The notes beneath the pieces were generated by a model. That model did not search any database, had not been told where the DNA came from, and was given only the letters and a program-made list of their open reading frames with translations. 64,000 nucleotides of DNA. It comes from Gammaproteobacteria bacterium. GTDB taxonomy: Bacteria > Pseudomonadota > Gammaproteobacteria > Arenicellales > JAJDZL01. A program made the translations under genes and the position numbers. Position 1 is the stretch's first letter. Each line of letters starts with the position of its first letter. Of this stretch, positions 502 through 53,072 are shown piece by piece. Location of the stretch: positions 7,430 to 71,429 of the forward strand of contig JAJDXD010000073.1 of NCBI GenBank assembly GCA_022823405.1. Direction: 5' to 3'.

Positions 502-1764
502 TCAATCGGTCGGAACTGTCGTTCCACCTTCAAGCAGATAATTCAATGTGGAAAATCTCTCCATCCCGTACCCCGCTGCCAGCGGGTGCGGCTCATCGCG
601 TGCGATTAAGTGCGCAAATGTCATGCCACCGGCAGGAATGGCCTTGAATCCACCCCACCAACCGGCACTGACGTAGAATCCTTTAACTTCAGTTGCGGAA
701 ACGATCGGACTGCCATCCTGAGCGAATTCCAGGGCACCGCCCCACTGCCGCATCAACTTCAGCCGTCGGAAAGAAGGAAAAAGCTCAAGTAGCCCCGAAA
801 CAGTGTCTTCCAGCATTGGGAATTTGCCACCTTTTCTAAATGAAATCTGCTGCGCATCAGTTGCTCCACCAATCACTAACTCTCCCTTATCAGAATGGCT
901 GAGATATACCCCTAAATCAGGGCAATTGACGACAACATCAAGAACCGGTTTGATCGGTTCAGAAACAAATGCCTGTAGGTTGTAGCACCGAAGCGGGAGT
1001 CTCAAGTCAACCAGACTCGCCACTGCAGCGTTTTCGTTACCGGTTGCAATCGCTAATTTGTTGGTCTTTATTCGCCCTCGACTTGTCTCAATTGCAGTAA
1101 CCGCACCATCTTCGCCACGACGGATAGCCGTGACTTCGGCATTTTGAATAATGTCGACACCGTAAGAGTCGGCGCCTCTTGCATACCCCCATACGATCGC
1201 ATCATGCCTGGCGATACCGGCACGTTCCTGAACCGAACCACCTAAAATGGGCAAACGGCAGTTTTCCATAGGAGCCAGAATCGGAATTCGCTGCCTCACC
1301 TGGTCAGGCGTCAACATCTGAAATTCGATACCCAGTCGATTCATGTTGAGCGCGCGTCTTCTCATGTTGCGCATACTCACGGTAGTCAGTAGCACATCGA
1401 CTTCGCTACGCTGGCTGAGCATGATGTTGTAGTTGAGTTCCCGACTCAGTCCTTCATAGAGCTGCAACGACTTGTCAAAAAATTGAATGCTGATGTCACG
1501 CAGGTAATTGGATCGAACAACTGCAGTATTACGACCAGAATTACCACCACCAATCCAGTTTCTTTCAACCACAGCGACATTATGGATACCGTGGTTTTTC
1601 GCCAAATAATAGGCAGTAGCGAGACCATGCCCACCTCCACCGACGATGACTACATCGTATTGCTTCTTAGGCTGCGGATTTCGCCAGGCTGGTTTCCAAT
1701 TTCTGTGAGCGCGAACTGCGCCACCAATCAGAGTGAAAATTGAATATCGTTGATCTGAGCGCAC
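502..1764 (-). CDS. soxB: sarcosine oxidase beta subunit (FAD-dependent)
   Basis: 420 aa with the N-terminal dinucleotide fold YDVVIVGGGGHGLATAYYLA and a SoxB-like N-terminus (NWKPAWRNPQPKK). Confidence 0.9.
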   Translation of the reverse strand: MRSDQRYSIFTLIGGAVRAHRNWKPAWRNPQPKKQYDVVIVGGGGHGLATAYYLAKNHGIHNVAVVERNWIGGGNSGRNTAVVRSNYLRDISIQFFDKSLQLYEGLSRELNYNIMLSQRSEVDVLLTTVSMRNMRRRALNMNRLGIEFQMLTPDQVRQRIPILAPMENCRLPILGGSVQERAGIARHDAIVWGYARGADSYGVDIIQNAEVTAIRRGEDGAVTAIETSRGRIKTNKLAIATGNENAAVASLVDLRLPLRCYNLQAFVSEPIKPVLDVVVNCPDLGVYLSHSDKGELVIGGATDAQQISFRKGGKFPMLEDTVSGLLELFPSFRRLKLMRQWGGALEFAQDGSPIVSATEVKGFYVSAGWWGGFKAIPAGGMTFAHLIARDEPHPLAAGYGMERFSTLNYLLEGGTTVPTD

Positions 1765-6427: not shown

Positions 6428-7539
6428 GATGTCCTCGCTTCTTGAGCCGTAGCGGGCCCGTTGATCAAGTCCTGAAGGACGTGTGAAACCTCTTTCATCT
6501 GAGAAGGTGTTCCAATCGTAAATCGAATGCAATCGGAAAACGCGTCAGATGCCAGGCGACGGGTGAAGATTCCCTGTGCCAATAACTCACGGTGCAGGTC
6601 GGATGCCACTACCAGCTCTGGTGGAAATTTTGCCAGTAAAAAATTGGTCTGGGAAGGAAATACACGGGCACCCAATCGCTCTAGAGTGGCAGCGAACGTC
6701 TGGCGCCCCTTCAAGTTGCGTTCAAAGACACTCTTCGTGTATTCACGGTCTGCCATTGCTGCTTTGGCGCACTCAAATGCGACATTCGAAATCGGAAAAG
6801 TCATTCCGATTTTTCGAATCGCATCAGTAATCCGTTTCGGTGCGTACATCCATCCCAAGCGCAATCCAGCAAGGCCGTAAATCTTTGAAAATGTTCTTGT
6901 CATTACCACATTTTCATTTTCTTCAACAAGAGAGACCGGGTCTCCAAATTCATCGTCATCGACATATTCGAGATAGGCAGAATCCAGTATCAGGAGGACG
7001 CTGGACGGCAGATTCTGCTGCAGTCGCCTGACTTCAGACCCACTTACCCAAGTACCAGAGGGATTATCGGGATTTGCGATCATGACGATTCGAGTTTTGG
7101 ACGACACACAACTCAAAACTTCATCGACATTTGTCGTAAAGTCGCTATCGTTTGCACGAACAGGAACAGCATCATTAGCGTACGCGTAGTTTGGAATTTT
7201 CTGATAGCCATTGATACTGCAGATTAATTCATCGCCCGGTCTTAGAAATGCACGAGCGAGTCTTGCCAGCAAGTCATCGGAACCGTTCCCACAAACAACA
7301 CCGTCAGGACTGAGTGCATGATGATGAGCAACGCGTTCGGTTAAAGCAGCTTCCGCACCATCAGCATATCGTTCCATACTCTGAATCGCTTCGGTGGCAG
7401 CAGCTATCGCCAAGTCAGCTGGGCCAAATGCACTTTCATTGGAAGCAATATTGATACGAGTTCCAGCTAGTGCTTTATCGTCCGCTGCAACCATGTGCGG
7501 CTTTATGCTCTCTAGGCCGGGACGCAGTTCAGGGGTCAT
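6424..7539 (-). CDS. class I/II PLP aminotransferase (histidinol-phosphate aminotransferase-like)
   Basis: 371 aa with HisC-family motifs (NESAFGP, NPDNPSG, FSKIYGLAGLRLGW with the PLP lysine). Confidence 0.8.
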   Translation of the reverse strand: MTPELRPGLESIKPHMVAADDKALAGTRINIASNESAFGPADLAIAAATEAIQSMERYADGAEAALTERVAHHHALSPDGVVCGNGSDDLLARLARAFLRPGDELICSINGYQKIPNYAYANDAVPVRANDSDFTTNVDEVLSCVSSKTRIVMIANPDNPSGTWVSGSEVRRLQQNLPSSVLLILDSAYLEYVDDDEFGDPVSLVEENENVVMTRTFSKIYGLAGLRLGWMYAPKRITDAIRKIGMTFPISNVAFECAKAAMADREYTKSVFERNLKGRQTFAATLERLGARVFPSQTNFLLAKFPPELVVASDLHRELLAQGIFTRRLASDAFSDCIRFTIGTPSQMKEVSHVLQDLINGPATAQEARTS

Positions 7540-46044: not shown

Positions 46045-46253
46045 AGTTCAACTGTCAGTTCGAAATTCTTACCAGTGTTTCCCAAATTGATTGTCGGCTC
46101 GTGCAAGTGGTGTGAAACTGAATTCGCTGAGAACTCAGCGCGACTTAACTGCAAATAATTCGCAGCTCAAAACGCTTGAATTCTGGTAATTACACACTAA
46201 CTATAAATGCCAAATACGACAAATCATGTTTTTCGGTAACATGGAGTACCTCG

Positions 46254-48158
46254 ATGTCAGAAGAAACAACAATAGACAAAATTGATTTTCAAGCTGAAGT
46301 CCAGCAACTACTGAACCTCGTTATTCACTCTTTGTACTCGGAACGGGAAGTATTCCTGCGAGAGTTGATTTCCAATGCTTCAGATGCCTGTGGACGACTT
46401 CGGTTCGAGTCTCTAACCAATCCCGACATGCTGGAGTCAGAACACACGCCAGCCGTTGAATTGGAAATTGCGAAGAGGCCCAAGACCATCACCATCCGAG
46501 ATAACGGCATTGGAATGACCCGCGAAGAGGTCGCAGAGAATATCGGAACGATTGCCCGGTCAGGCACCAAGAAATTTGTTGAGGCTCTCACTGGAGAACA
46601 GTCCGAAGATGCTAATCTGATCGGACAGTTTGGAGTCGGCTTCTATTCTGTGTTCATGGTTGCCGAAAGAGTCGTCATGAAAACTCGCAAAGCAGGTACT
46701 GCAAAGGATCAAGGTGTCGTTTGGGAGTCAGATGGAGTAAGTGGCTACACAATTGAAGATCAGTCAATTGAAAATCATGGCACTGAGATCATCATTACAC
46801 TGCGTAAGGATGCCAAAGAATTTTTAGATACAGGTCAGGTTTCAAGCGTCATTAAGAAGTATGCAGATCACATCTCTGTTCCAATTCGACTTCGAGCCGC
46901 TCCAACTGCCAAAAAAGAAGAAGAGTGGGAACTCGTAAACGACGGTTCAGCGCTCTGGACCCGGGCGCGCAAAGACATATCCGATGAGGAATATGACAAT
47001 TTCTATAAGTCACTCACCTTCGATTTTGAAAATCCGCTGCTAAGATTGCACAATCGTGTCGAGGGGCGACTGGAGTATTCCGCTCTAGTCTTTATTCCAG
47101 TTCATGCGCCATATGACCTGTGGGATGCCGACCGTCAGCGCGGTATCAAGCTCTATGTTCGACGCGTATTCATAGCGGATGACACAAAAAACCTGATGCC
47201 AAGCTACCTTCGGTTTGTACGTGGCGTTATCGACTCCGATGACCTGCCATTGAACATTTCACGGGAATTTCTTCAGAAGAACAAACAAGTCGAACGAATT
47301 CGCGCTGGTGTTGTCAAGAAAATACTTGGCGAACTCAAGCGCGTTGCCAAGAAGGACATTGAGAAATATCAGACCTTCTGGAAAGAGTTTGGTCGGGCGT
47401 TTAAAGAAGGAATTACAGAGGACGAGGACAACCGGCAGACAATTGCTGAATTGCTTCGATTCGCTACGACAAAGAGCGAAGGTGATGAACAGACCGAATC
47501 ATTGCAGCAATACATTGATCGCATGCATGAAAAACAGGATGCGATTTATTACATCACCGCTGACAGCCACGCTTCCGCTCAAGGCTCTCCACATCTTGAG
47601 GTTTTCAAAAAGCATAACATCGAAGTCATTCTGATGAGCGACCATATTGATGAGTGGGTAGTCATGCATTTGACCGAATTTCAAGACAAACCTCTGAAAT
47701 CAATTGCCAAAGGCGACCTTGAACTGGACTGGCTTGATTCCGAGGAAAAAGCTGAAGACCAGCCCGATGAAAAAGTGGAGGCACTGGTCGGCAAACTGAA
47801 AGATGTATTGGGCAGTCGAATTACTGATGTACGAGTCACATCCCGATTGACTGATTCACCGGCATGCCTGGTCGTTGGCGATTACGGACTCAGTCGTAAT
47901 TTAACGCGTATTCTGAAAGCCACCGGTCAGAGCTCGTACAACGTACCACCAATTATGGAAATCAATCCGAATCACCAGATTATTCGAAACTTGGTGGAAT
48001 CAGATGACAATCTGGATGACTGGGCACATGTCCTGTTTGATCAGGCTGTCTTGAGCGAAGGTTCTGCGCTGGATGATCCTGCCGATTATGTTCGACGGAT
48101 CAATACTCTGCTCTCAAGCGCTTCCGGCGAGAAAAGCCCAATCATAATTGCTCCGTAA
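46254..48158 (+). CDS. htpG: molecular chaperone HtpG (Hsp90)
   Basis: The start is set at MSEETTIDKIDFQAEVQQLLNLVIHSLYSEREVFLRELISNASDA, with GGAG upstream. The protein is full-length Hsp90 architecture. Confidence 0.92.
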   Translation: MSEETTIDKIDFQAEVQQLLNLVIHSLYSEREVFLRELISNASDACGRLRFESLTNPDMLESEHTPAVELEIAKRPKTITIRDNGIGMTREEVAENIGTIARSGTKKFVEALTGEQSEDANLIGQFGVGFYSVFMVAERVVMKTRKAGTAKDQGVVWESDGVSGYTIEDQSIENHGTEIIITLRKDAKEFLDTGQVSSVIKKYADHISVPIRLRAAPTAKKEEEWELVNDGSALWTRARKDISDEEYDNFYKSLTFDFENPLLRLHNRVEGRLEYSALVFIPVHAPYDLWDADRQRGIKLYVRRVFIADDTKNLMPSYLRFVRGVIDSDDLPLNISREFLQKNKQVERIRAGVVKKILGELKRVAKKDIEKYQTFWKEFGRAFKEGITEDEDNRQTIAELLRFATTKSEGDEQTESLQQYIDRMHEKQDAIYYITADSHASAQGSPHLEVFKKHNIEVILMSDHIDEWVVMHLTEFQDKPLKSIAKGDLELDWLDSEEKAEDQPDEKVEALVGKLKDVLGSRITDVRVTSRLTDSPACLVVGDYGLSRNLTRILKATGQSSYNVPPIMEINPNHQIIRNLVESDDNLDDWAHVLFDQAVLSEGSALDDPADYVRRINTLLSSASGEKSPIIIAP

Positions 48159-51343: not shown

Positions 51344-51560
51344 GTTTTCAAACTTGCGAAATTTAATTCTCTATTGCAGTGTTTGTTTTGTGGCCGACTG
51401 AATTCTAGATAATTACTTCAAACCAAAGTGAATATTGGTGAATCTACAGGTTGGGTTGAATCGACTTTCGCCAGCAACCTGTCAAACTCTATATAATCTG
51501 CGGGATTGTCGCGGCTGATCAGTATCAATTTGTTGTTCGTTCAAATCTCGACAAGCGTAG

Positions 51561-51637
<77 letters not shown>

Positions 51638-51646
51638 GTGTGATAT

Positions 51647-51931
51647 GCGCCTGTAGCTCAACTGGATAGAGCAACGGCCTTCGACAAGGAGCCTTTTCAG
51701 GGAATTAAACCTGTTAAGTGGAGGGCACTGTATCGGTGAAACCTTAACGCGTAAGGGCGATGGCAATACCGAGGAAACCGTCAAACCACGGGATCCGTAG
51801 AGACTATACGTGCCCCACCTGAGATGGTGAAGATATAGTCCAGACTACAAACCGGCTGATCAACGCCGGGCAATGAAAATTGTAGTAGTATGCTAAGCCG
51901 TAGGTTACAGGTTCGAGTCCTGTCAGGCGTG
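51647..51931 (+). tRNA. tRNA-Arg (anticodon UCU) interrupted by a group I intron; exons 51647-51681 and 51893-51931
   Basis: The 5' exon is GCGCCTG-TA-GCTC-AACTGGATA-GAGC-A-ACGGC-CTT. The 3' exon is CTAA-GCCGT-AGGTT-ACAGG-TTCGAGT-CCTGT-CAGGCGT-G. The spliced anticodon loop is CUUCUAA, and the sequence is collinear with E. coli argU-type tRNA. CCA is not encoded. Confidence 0.9.
51682..51892 (+). ncRNA. group I self-splicing intron (IC3-like, 211 nt, no ORF)
   Basis: The 5' exon ends in U and the intron ends in G. Readable pairings: P1 CUU/GAG (51679-81 with 51689-91, U-G at the splice site); P2 CAGG/CCTG; P3 GGGCAC (51723-28) with GTGCCC (51810-15); P6 CCGT/ACGG; P7 GACTATA (51802-08) with TATAGTC (51834-40); P8 CACC/GGTG; P9 ACTACAA/TTGTAGT enclosing CCGGC/GCCGG. 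The order P3-P4/5/6-P7-P3'-P8-P7' is the group I pseudoknot. GTAGAGACTA...ACG.GC.CCCACCT resembles the Azoarcus tRNA-Ile intron core (from memory). Confidence 0.88.
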
Positions 51932-52000
51932 CATTTTTGGACTTCAGTTCAACACACTGCCATAGTGTAGAAACTGGAGTAATCAAGTACTTTGGTAAGT

Positions 52001-52077
52001 GGTGGGCGTAGCTCAGTTGGTAGAGCCCTGGATTGTGGTTCCAGTGGTCGTGGGTTCGAATCCCATCGTCCACCCCA
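52001..52077 (+). tRNA. tRNA-His (anticodon GUG)
   Basis: The extra G-1 is present (GGTGGGCG...). The anticodon arm is CTGGA-TTGTGGT-TCCAG, the T-loop is TTCGAAT, and the 3' end is CCACCCCA. It is near-identical in layout to E. coli hisR. Confidence 0.95.
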
Positions 52078-52112
52078 CTCTTGACCGATGCACAACCGGG
52101 GAATGAAGCCTG

Positions 52113-53072
52113 ATGCAACTGCCGTCACTCAGCGAAATTGAAAACGCTGCCGCTCAAATCGCACCATATGTATCGCCGACACCACAATACCAGTGGCCAC
52201 TCCTCAGTGATCGATGTAATTCTGAAGTCTGGGTTAAGCACGAAAACACCACACCCATCGGATCATTCAAAATTCGCGGCGGTATTACTTATATGGCCGA
52301 TCTGGACACAGATCGCGTTATCTGCGCCACCCGCGGCAATCACGGTCAGTCTGTCGCGTACGCTGCGCGTATTTTTGGGATGCGGGCAACGGTAGTTGTT
52401 CCCAAAGACAACAGTGCTGCAAAAAACACTTCCATGCGCGCATTCGGCGCAACACTGATTGAATACGGTCGAGACTTTACGGAAGCGCACGAATATGCTC
52501 ATCAGCTAGCTGATGAGCAAAATCTTCACTTTGTTCCTTCATTTCATCGCAAACTGGTCGTGGGTGTCGCCACTTGCGGACTGGAACTGCTTAAGCGTGT
52601 TCCAGACCTTGATGAAGTTTATGTTCCCGTTGGCTTGGGCTCCGAAATTTGTGCAATGATCGCCGTACGTGAAGCACTTGGACTAAAAACCGAAATAATT
52701 GGTGTAGTAGCAGACAAAGCGCCTGCATATGCACTGTCTTTTGAAAAAGGCCAGGTTGTATCAACCGATTCGGCCGACACCTTCGCCGATGGTGTTGCAG
52801 TTAGAGTTCCCGATGCAGAAGCACTCGCCATCATGACACAGCATGTTTCCCGATTCATTCGAGTGACTGAGCGAGAAATCGCTGAGGCCATGTGCATCTA
52901 CTTCACTGATACCCACCATGTTGTTGAAGGTGCCGGAGCATCTAGCCTGGCAGCCTTGATTAAAGACAAGTCTCGTTCTGACAGCCGATGCGCGGGTGTC
53001 ATTGCATCAGGTGGCAATGTCAATCAGGACCTCTACTGCAAAATTCTTAACGGCAGTTACTGCTTCGATTAA
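52113..53072 (+). CDS. PLP-dependent serine/threonine dehydratase family protein
   Basis: 319 aa with the PLP-lysine motif GSFKIRG and a glycine-rich phosphate loop region. It has no ACT/regulatory domain. Confidence 0.8.
   Translation: MQLPSLSEIENAAAQIAPYVSPTPQYQWPLLSDRCNSEVWVKHENTTPIGSFKIRGGITYMADLDTDRVICATRGNHGQSVAYAARIFGMRATVVVPKDNSAAKNTSMRAFGATLIEYGRDFTEAHEYAHQLADEQNLHFVPSFHRKLVVGVATCGLELLKRVPDLDEVYVPVGLGSEICAMIAVREALGLKTEIIGVVADKAPAYALSFEKGQVVSTDSADTFADGVAVRVPDAEALAIMTQHVSRFIRVTEREIAEAMCIYFTDTHHVVEGAGASSLAALIKDKSRSDSRCAGVIASGGNVNQDLYCKILNGSYCFD

Follow-up and report, generated by a model that had tools for sequence, protein, structure and literature searches.

Introns in bacterial tRNA genes have been sorted into 21 classes, up from 4, and one of these, Arg.3Ug, is defined by an Arg tRNA host, insertion after the third nucleotide of the anticodon loop, a U at the last position of the 5' exon (U(-1)), and a G at the end of the intron (omega-G) (Williams KP, bioRxiv 2020, 10.1101/2020.01.27.920355). 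The seed alignment includes Rba190.Arg.3Ug, in which an Arg tRNA is split as CUU/...g/ and P1 is CUUC/GGAG (bioRxiv 10.1101/2020.01.27.920355). Herein we describe an intron at the same site in a stretch of 64,000 nucleotides (nt) of Arenicellales DNA (assembly GCA_022823405.1, contig JAJDXD010000073.1, positions 7,430 to 71,429), which in its full length is called the window below. A tRNA-Arg(UCU) gene occupies positions 51647-51931 of its plus strand, and a 211-nt insert (51682-51892) separates U34 from C35. The insert is, with high probability, a group I intron, and the gene that it splits a chromosomal one of an Arenicellales gammaproteobacterium, within a conserved Pro(UGG)-Arg(UCU)-His(GUG) cluster; we infer that the intron is removed by splicing.

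The gene fits the Arg.3Ug definition, with the loop CUU-CUAA, the anticodon UCU, and tRNA-Arg(tct) as the spliced product. Because an Arg.3Ug seed already stands in the 2020 alignment, the class had been catalogued before, and the Arenicellales intron is a further member of it, with neither host nor site unusual. A preliminary description of this DNA, made from the sequence alone, had considered both unusual, a view that is wrong given that host and site are common, with the same site split in at least 120 other sequences. The P1 of Rba190.Arg.3Ug, CUUC/GGAG, is identical to that of the window intron, and the two share the layout of P2, P3-P8, P9, P9a, and a GAAA-capped P9b. They differ in that the core of Rba190.Arg.3Ug is Azoarcus-like (GUCAAAUUCGGGG, GACUAGACGG, AAGGGAUAGUCC), whereas the window family has CACUGUAUCGGUG, GACUAUACG, and AAGAUAUAGUCC. 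Overall, the window intron is ~68% identical to Rba190.Arg.3Ug, which is no closer than to seeds from other tRNAs (62-69% for all nine preprint seeds) and is therefore uninformative on a shared lineage.

The Azoarcus tRNA-Ile(CAU) intron (Aol6.Ile2.5Ug in the same alignment) resembles the window intron in its length of ~200 nt, its lack of an open reading frame (ORF), its 3-base-pair (bp) exon-guide P1, and a GAAA tetraloop in the P9 domain. The P4-J4/5-P5 and J5/4 segments are nearly identical (UCGGxGAAACCU..AUGGCAAxxCCGAG), and the likeness extends to J6/7-P7, which reads GUAGAGACUA. However, the Azoarcus intron lies in a different tRNA and after position 36, its J3/4 is AAAU rather than UGUA, and its P6 is GCC/GGU rather than GGA/UCC. 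In addition, P8 of the window intron is a bare 4-bp hairpin without a receptor, and its P9 domain has three helices.

These features bear on the subgroup of the intron, whose core the preliminary description had likened to those of the small IC3 introns. The comparison holds for the architecture: the core is compact and lacks P5abc and P7.1/P7.2, a P2 is present, the multi-helix P9 domain carries an invariant GAAA, and neither the alignment structure nor RNAalifold places extra helices between P7 and P3'. It fails for the J3/4 AAA(U) and P6 GCC/GGU sequences of the IC3 type (Azoarcus, Anabaena), in place of which the window family has UGUA and GGA/UCC. We therefore call the intron IC3-like in its predicted architecture and leave the subgroup unassigned.

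Three further systems deserve comparison. The cyanobacterial and plastid tRNA-Leu(UAA) introns (Leu.3Ug) share the insertion point, between U34 and position 35, but occupy another tRNA, and the classical cases have another host range. The alphaproteobacterial tRNA-Arg(CCU) intron (Agrobacterium; Arg.5Ug) is likewise a proteobacterial group I intron in the anticodon loop of an Arg tRNA, although the isoacceptor differs and the site is two nt further 3', after position 36. The Synechocystis tRNA-fMet intron encodes the PD-(D/E)XK endonuclease I-Ssp6803I, and the long members of the window family encode a PD-(D/E)XK endonuclease of PF11645, which we take to be the Pfam family of I-Ssp6803I; the window intron differs in its lack of an ORF and in its tRNA and site. 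A literature search on group I introns in tRNA-Arg UCU returned organelle papers only. A paper on cyanobacterial tRNAs (PMC5733544) was set aside as not relevant because its 'introns' are 22-49 nt long.

The split gene and its group I intron

The 5' exon (51647-51681) contributes tRNA positions 1-34 and reads GCGCCUG UA GCUC AACUGGAUA GAGC A ACGGC CUU, comprising the acceptor strand GCGCCUG, the D arm GCUC/GAGC, and the anticodon-stem strand ACGGC, followed by C32-U33-U34. The 3' exon (51893-51931, positions 35-73) reads CUAA GCCGU AGGUU ACAGG UUCGAGU CCUGU CAGGCGU G and supplies CUAA, the stem strand GCCGU, the variable loop, the T arm, the acceptor strand CAGGCGU, which forms a G1.U72 wobble, and the discriminator G. 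When joined, the halves make a 75-nt cloverleaf that ARAGORN calls tRNA-Arg(tct); the corresponding uninterrupted target sequence is GAGCAACGGCCTTCTAAGCCGTAGG. The insert starts with CGACAAGGAG and ends with GUAGUAUG, its last base being the omega-G at 51892. Only the U34-C35 junction combines a 7-nt loop with U(-1) and a terminal G.

On the position of the intron, the U.G at the 5' splice site, and the terminal G, the preliminary description agrees with the sequence base for base. It was also right that there is no homing-endonuclease ORF in the 211-nt insert, and that an ORF on the opposite strand (51804-52118, minus) is an artefact: this ORF has no Pfam match and runs antisense to tRNA-His, the 3' exon, and the intron core.

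Three lines of evidence identify the insert as a group I intron: homologous inserts split tRNA-Arg(UCU) in no fewer than 120 other sequences, nearly all helices covary, and a family model matches. The insert has a P1 with a U.G wobble, an omega-G, and a P3-P4-P5-P6 / P7-P3'-P8-P7' core with the P3/P7 pseudoknot in canonical order. The family model, R1, is a covariance model that covers the catalytic core, from P3 to P7'. The 12 members on which it was trained all lie outside Arenicellales and come from Nitrospiraceae, Bacillales, Lactobacillales, Chloroflexota, Sedimenticolaceae, and viral contigs. Searched against both strands of the window, R1 gives a single match, at 51719-51845, with 146.5 bits and an E value of 2.3e-35. 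Judged by this match, a chance resemblance to a group I intron is excluded. RF00028 also matches 51671-51885 over the whole model (1-253) when 601 nt are scanned with sensitive Rfam settings; the match has 28.1 bits and an E value of 3.6e-5, and its alignment includes the diagnostic core AGACUA...AAGAUAUAGUC.

Conserved helices of the intron

Pair counts were taken from a MAFFT alignment of the 40 shortest family members, with the structure written from the window sequence and intron positions numbered from 51682 as 1. In this alignment, 97.0% of cells are paired, versus 35-40% when the partners are slid by 1-3 columns. Compensatory changes occur in 33 of the 64 modelled pairs, a count reached by none of 500 shuffles. 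RNAalifold recovers the same helices without a supplied structure, including a 5-bp P9 and P9b. The window sequence itself forms 62 of the 64 pairs, and the two exceptions are U.U mismatches in the peripheral P2.

All elements lie on the plus strand. P1 (51679-51691) pairs C32-U33-U34-C1 (51679-51682) with G7-G8-A9-G10 (51688-51691), and U34.G8 is the splice-site wobble. Its CUU/GAG pairs are present in all 40 sequences and are invariant because the exon fixes the sequence; the +1 pair forms in 65% of them. A 2-bp P10 is possible between intron A6-G7 and C35-U36 of the 3' exon, as read from the sequence only. RNAalifold additionally draws an AGC/GCU pairing between the guide and the G-CU of the 3' splice site (51690-51692 with 51892-51894; alignment columns 41-43 with 351-353). 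All of its positions are invariant, and it can form because CU occurs at both 32-33 and 35-36.

The P2 hairpin (51693-51718) pairs 51693-51701 with 51710-51718 (intron 12-20 with 29-37); 95% of its cells are paired and 8 of its 9 pairs show compensatory changes. P3, whose closure creates the P3/P7 pseudoknot, joins GGGCAC (51723-51728) to GUGCCC (51810-51815), that is, intron 42-47 to 129-134. It is 100% paired with compensation in 5 of 6 pairs, and its variants include UGGUAC/GUACCA, CGACAC/GUGUCG, and UCUCGC/GCGAGA besides GGGCAC/GUGCCC. In the P4-P5-P5a domain (51733-51772; J4/5 is AAA and J5/4 is CAA), both P4 (UCGGUG/UACCGA, 51733-51738 with 51767-51772, intron 52-57 with 86-91) and P5 (CC/GG, 51742-51743 with 51762-51763, intron 61-62 with 81-82) are 100% paired, and a CG pair of P5 is replaced by GC in 3 sequences. 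P5a (51748-51750 with 51757-51759, intron 67-69 with 76-78) has 2 of 3 pairs compensated. The internal loop of P5, CCUUAAC/GAUGG, resembles by eye the 11-nt GAAA-tetraloop receptor (Azoarcus has CCUAAG/UAUGG at the same place), which suggests, by analogy, a tertiary contact between L9b and P5.

P6 (GGA/UCC, 51773-51775 with 51794-51796, intron 92-94 with 113-115) and P6a (CCGU/ACGG, 51778-51781 with 51788-51791, intron 97-100 with 107-110) are together 92.8% paired, with 5 of 7 pairs compensated. As read from the relative L128, the L6a position is where the endonuclease ORF sits in related introns. The 5' strand of P7 (51800-51808) follows J6/7 (GUA), matches the Rfam consensus, and consists of a G, a bulged A, and then GACUAUA; by analogy it would hold the guanosine-binding site. 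It pairs perfectly with 51834-51841 (intron 119 and 121-127 with 153-160), which together with J8/7 (AAGA) occupies 51830-51841, the 3' strand being UAUAGUCC. The P8 hairpin (51816-51829) consists of CACC, the loop UGAGAU, and GGUG (intron 135-138 with 145-148) and is 100% paired, with compensation in 2 of 4 pairs.

Three helices make up the P9 domain (51844-51889). P9 joins ACUAC (51844-51848) to GUAGU (51885-51889), or intron 163-167 to 204-208; P9a is the CCGGC/GCCGG hairpin (51852-51856 with 51865-51869, intron 171-175 with 184-188), with 4 of 5 pairs compensated; and P9b (GCAAU-GAAA-AUUGU, 51870-51883, intron 189-193 with 198-202) is 99.5% paired, with 4 of 5 pairs compensated and an invariant GAAA loop. 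Other positions that are invariant even though the search pattern did not include them are the guide GGAGC, CUGUAUCGG (J3/4-P4), one A of J4/5, the rest of which varies, and positions in J5/4-P4-P6.

Most helices named in the preliminary description (P1 CUU/GAG, P2, P3 GGGCAC/GUGCCC, CCGU/ACGG, here assigned to P6a, P7 GACUAUA/UAUAGUC, P8, and CCGGC/GCCGG) are present in the expected places, and P4, P5, P5a, and P6 proper (GGA/UCC) can be added to them. Its P9 requires revision. The 7-bp helix proposed there (ACUACAA/UUGUAGU, intron 163-169 with 199-205) is complementary in the window sequence, but this pairing is not conserved: it is 80.7% paired across the alignment and carries a C.A mismatch in 20 of 40 sequences. 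For the 5-bp P9 the paired fraction is 98.5%, and in 13 sequences a C-G pair is cleanly replaced by U-A; the 7-bp register is therefore a coincidence of one sequence. Promoter-like and terminator-like signals on the minus strand inside the intron were rejected as by-products of P7/P8 and P9a.

Distribution, inheritance, and mobility

A genome scan with a specific pattern, using one genome per GTDB species, yielded at least 119 loci. Nearly all of those listed read ...CCUU-intron...G-CUAAG... when ARAGORN with intron search is combined with the U(-1)/omega-G rule. From the genome loci listed, a few viral contigs, and the window, 121 sequences were cleanly extracted, and all 121 splice in silico to tRNA-Arg(tct). 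The extraction step required an omega-G; the ARAGORN intron-search listing, in which every split gene has a U(-1)/omega-G junction restoring CUUCUAA, is the independent check of this nucleotide. A homologous intron thus sits at the same CUU-CUAA site in 120 or more sequences besides the window, and the hosts include Arenicellales, other Gammaproteobacteria, Bacillales, Bacteroidota, Chloroflexota, and Nitrospiraceae. Dozens of species-level genomes of Arenicellales, Poriferihabitaceae, and Acidiferrobacterales carry the ORF-less form without an endonuclease. The same core pattern occurs in a tRNA-Leu(UAA) gene of a Blastocatellia metagenome-assembled genome (MAG) (L143, ~1400-1700, plus strand), split at the classical U34-A35 site, which shows that this type of core also occurs outside tRNA-Arg.

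Most proteobacterial members have the gene order Pro(UGG)-[Arg]-His(GUG), to which Lys and Leu may be added, and of the arrangements at the intron-bearing loci listed, Pro-[Arg+intron]-His occurs most often. In Bacteroidota the split gene comes after Ser(GCU), and in Bacillales after Gly(UCC). Wherever ARAGORN called neighbouring tRNA genes at an intron-bearing locus, no second tRNA-Arg(UCU) lay within 1.5 kb. Complete Arenicellales chromosomes with the intron include OZ242211.1 and OY761535.1.

The flanks of the window are ~91% identical over 5-6 kb to those of three MAGs, L174 (OZ242211.1), L200, and L191, two of which are labelled Arenicellales and one Gammaproteobacteria only; identity to other Arenicellales is ~70%. 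These identities place the host among the Arenicellales. Against flanks of ~91% identity the intron itself reaches 96-98%, and against flanks of ~70% it still reaches 88-91%. Its rate of change is thus lower than that of the DNA around it, most of which codes for protein. This slow change, together with a divergence that tracks the host, fits a functional and mainly vertically inherited intron in Arenicellales. A near-identical metagenome contig, L001, differs by one intron substitution, in the P2 loop.

Uninterrupted alleles of the gene are also common. A search for the spliced junction together with the anticodon and T arms of the window gene matched 120 or more metagenome loci. Most of the 120 listed are uninterrupted tRNA-Arg(UCU) genes in a Pro-Arg-His cluster, the commonest arrangement among them. 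Many of these have htpG upstream, as in the window, at 64-68% nucleotide identity. By their gene order, the uninterrupted loci are syntenic empty sites in more distant relatives. An exact metagenome search with the full spliced tRNA, including the G1.U72 acceptor stem of the window lineage, gave no match and hence no very close intron-less allele.

Family members from Bacteroidota and Thermoactinomycetaceae whose introns measure 590-650 nt have, within the P6a loop, an ORF of ~140-150 amino acids that matches the PD-(D/E)XK endonuclease family PF11645 (E values of 5e-34 and 4.5e-37). Such introns are found at L128 (~6700-7350, minus strand), L150, L136, L164, L165, L166, L193, L222, L228, and L241, and the ORF is broken or absent in L134, L135, L216, and L217. 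A PDB sequence search with the ORF of the L128 intron gave no match. The endonuclease-bearing forms, the ORF-less forms such as that in the window, and the empty sites show, at the level of sequence comparison, a mobile group I intron cycle within the family.

The intron is carried by viruses as well. Among 127 viral matches to the broad core pattern listed from IMG/VR, 6 are split tRNA-Arg(UCU) genes: L062:1856-2171 (minus), L047:3832-4071, L073:188-428 (minus), L083:189-430 (minus), L057, and L088. The genes of L047, L062, L073, and L083 are split at the same place, by an intron ~70% identical to the window intron. The gene in L062, a contig of 82 kb with phage-type genes, belongs to a tRNA array, Leu(UAA)-[Arg]-Pro-Ser-Asn, that adjoins PHROG matches to an HNH endonuclease and a histidyl-tRNA synthetase-like (HisRS-like) protein. 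A search of the INPHARED phage genomes found no cultured phage with this split gene. It gave only partial matches of ~70% identity to the intron core, in two uncultured phages of ~485 kb (LR745208.1:167893-168065 and LR756508.1:12151-12276), and one match to the 3' exon alone.

Alternative readings, proposed splicing, and genomic setting

Several observations weigh against an intact group I intron in a working tRNA gene. The RF00028 score of 28.1 bits is below the curated Rfam gathering cut-off of 50, P1 has just 3-4 bp and P10 just 1-2 bp, and P2 carries its two U.U mismatches in the window lineage. Short P1 and P10 helices are usual for tRNA introns. The invariance of P7, J6/7, and J8/7 arises in part from their use as the search pattern, and these segments supply no covariation evidence. 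Unlike both neighbouring tRNAs, tRNA-Arg has a G1.U72 wobble and an incomplete CCA. The 3' end reads GCA rather than GCCA (51930-51934), whereas the flanking tRNA-Pro and tRNA-His encode CCA. The wobble and the incomplete CCA are common to the closest Arenicellales relatives, and the slightly more distant L133, L229, and L235 encode CCA.

The RF00028 shortfall can be judged against 16 diverse family members (L123, L128, L129, L138, L148, L163, L169, L174, L196, L133, L144, L150, L158, L047, L073, and L062). Not one of the 16 reaches the gathering score, and none of the 16 split genes is reported as a tRNA. According to the preprint, the Rfam seed has no bacterial introns, and the cut-offs used there are 18-20 bits (Williams, bioRxiv 10.1101/2020.01.27.920355). 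The shortfall therefore reflects the model rather than the RNA. A significant RF00028 hit had been put forward in the preliminary description as a check, and the outcome is borderline, with a full-length match on one side and a score under the curated threshold on the other. Because all 16 relatives also fall short, RF00028 significance is a poor test for this intron family.

Perhaps the intron has decayed and no longer splices, which would make the split gene a tRNA pseudogene and leave AGA to another tRNA-Arg(UCU) copy. The missing endonuclease ORF, the P2 mismatches, the G1.U72 wobble, the incomplete CCA, and the low Rfam score could all be cited in its favor. This reading is nevertheless very improbable: nearly all modelled pairs form in the window sequence, compensatory changes preserve the pairing of every helix across phyla, conservation is higher in the intron than in the genes on either side, the split gene sits at the orthologous position of an uninterrupted gene, and no second tRNA-Arg(UCU) lies within 1.5 kb at loci with ARAGORN-called neighbouring tRNAs. 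Still more extreme is the notion that the tRNA halves and the insert are unrelated, the group I likeness being due to chance or the halves belonging to separate genes. The silence of Rfam at its gathering threshold and of ARAGORN by default would agree with this, but the R1 match, the homologous split genes with the same junction, and the strong covariation refute it and reduce its probability to practically nothing.

It is also conceivable that splicing in the cell depends on a protein helper, such as an RNA chaperone or a maturase-like factor. Protein help in vivo is a common requirement among group I introns, both P1 and P10 are very short, and P2 is weakened in the window lineage. However, the architecture is compact, with an invariant P9b GAAA loop and a receptor-like P5 loop, no protein is encoded by the intron in the window, and small tRNA introns such as that of Azoarcus, which this one resembles, self-splice well. 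We consider helper dependence unlikely. Somewhat less likely yet is that the ORF-less intron is kept in Arenicellales and related orders as more than a neutral passenger, because its splicing gates the supply of tRNA-Arg(UCU), for example in response to GTP or Mg2+ levels, or protects the gene or its precursor. Its persistence without an endonuclease in dozens of genomes of three lineages and its conservation above the flanks speak for such a role, yet strong conservation is expected for any intron that must leave an essential tRNA, and uninterrupted alleles are common in related syntenic loci. These ideas could be joined into a fuller scenario, which we hold at the same low level of belief. 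The ORF-less intron would have become fixed and vertically inherited across marine and sponge-associated orders (Arenicellales, Ca. Poriferihabitaceae, and Acidiferrobacterales) and would, through co-option, now serve as a checkpoint that the AGA-decoding tRNA passes as it matures. The spread across phyla would be explained by related copies in phage tRNA arrays and by the endonuclease-bearing ones (Bacteroidota, Thermoactinomycetaceae), and a sub-lineage apart from the Arg.3Ug representative would mark a second colonisation of the site.

For the group I intron that we favor, self-splicing would be the expected mode of removal, and a pathway can be proposed from its anatomy and the established group I reaction. 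The tRNA cluster would be transcribed as a single precursor, in which the intron folds P1-P9. Pairing of its guide GAG (51689-51691; G8-A9-G10) with C32-U33-U34 would set the U34.G wobble at the 5' splice site. Bound in P7, a free guanosine would then attack after U34, and the omega-G (51892) would subsequently take its place in the P7 guanosine site. Next, the 3' OH of U34 would attack before C35, aided by the 1-2 bp of P10 (A6-G7 with C35-U36) and by the tRNA body. Release of the intron would leave a product with the anticodon loop CUUCUAA. Its ends would then be trimmed in the ordinary way, its CCA completed, and U34 and A37 modified. Because U34 lies at the junction, its modification as the wobble base should be possible only after splicing.

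The practical consequences concern annotation. ARAGORN without intron search and Rfam at gathering thresholds both report only the flanking tRNA-Pro(UGG) and tRNA-His(GUG) in this part of the window and nothing at the split gene. The whole intron family is missed by the default mode of the former and the curated threshold of the latter, and tRNAscan-SE 2.0 is, according to its authors, not designed for group I introns (PMC8450103). Since standard annotation misses the split gene, genomes with this intron will appear to have no AGA-reading tRNA, and assessments of tRNA complement and completeness can be distorted, especially for MAGs of Arenicellales and sponge symbionts. The family is also a well-populated example of a bacterial tRNA intron, found in several phyla and in part on phages, with endonuclease-carrying as well as ORF-less forms, although the overall picture of such introns is unchanged.

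Of the other genes in the cluster, tRNA-Pro(UGG) (51561-51637, plus strand; ARAGORN, RF00005 with 67.6 bits) comes first, 9 nt upstream of tRNA-Arg, and tRNA-His(GUG) (52002-52077, plus strand; ARAGORN and Rfam) comes last. A consensus scan places a promoter-like site, TCGCCA-18-TATAAT (51468-51497, plus strand), upstream of the cluster. It is weak, with about as many such sites expected in shuffled sequence, and it may drive the Pro-Arg-His precursor. The neighbouring genes are cellular and include those for HtpG (46176-48158) and a PALP-family enzyme (52113-53072), as well as MttB- and HTS-family genes (Pfam assignments from identical genes in L001). The conserved htpG upstream of the Pro-Arg-His cluster is useful for locating empty sites. 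Finally, upstream of the tRNA cluster, L001 has ~91 extra bases (~337-427) between CAAACCAAA and GUGAAUAUUGG relative to the window at ~51437, a strain indel.

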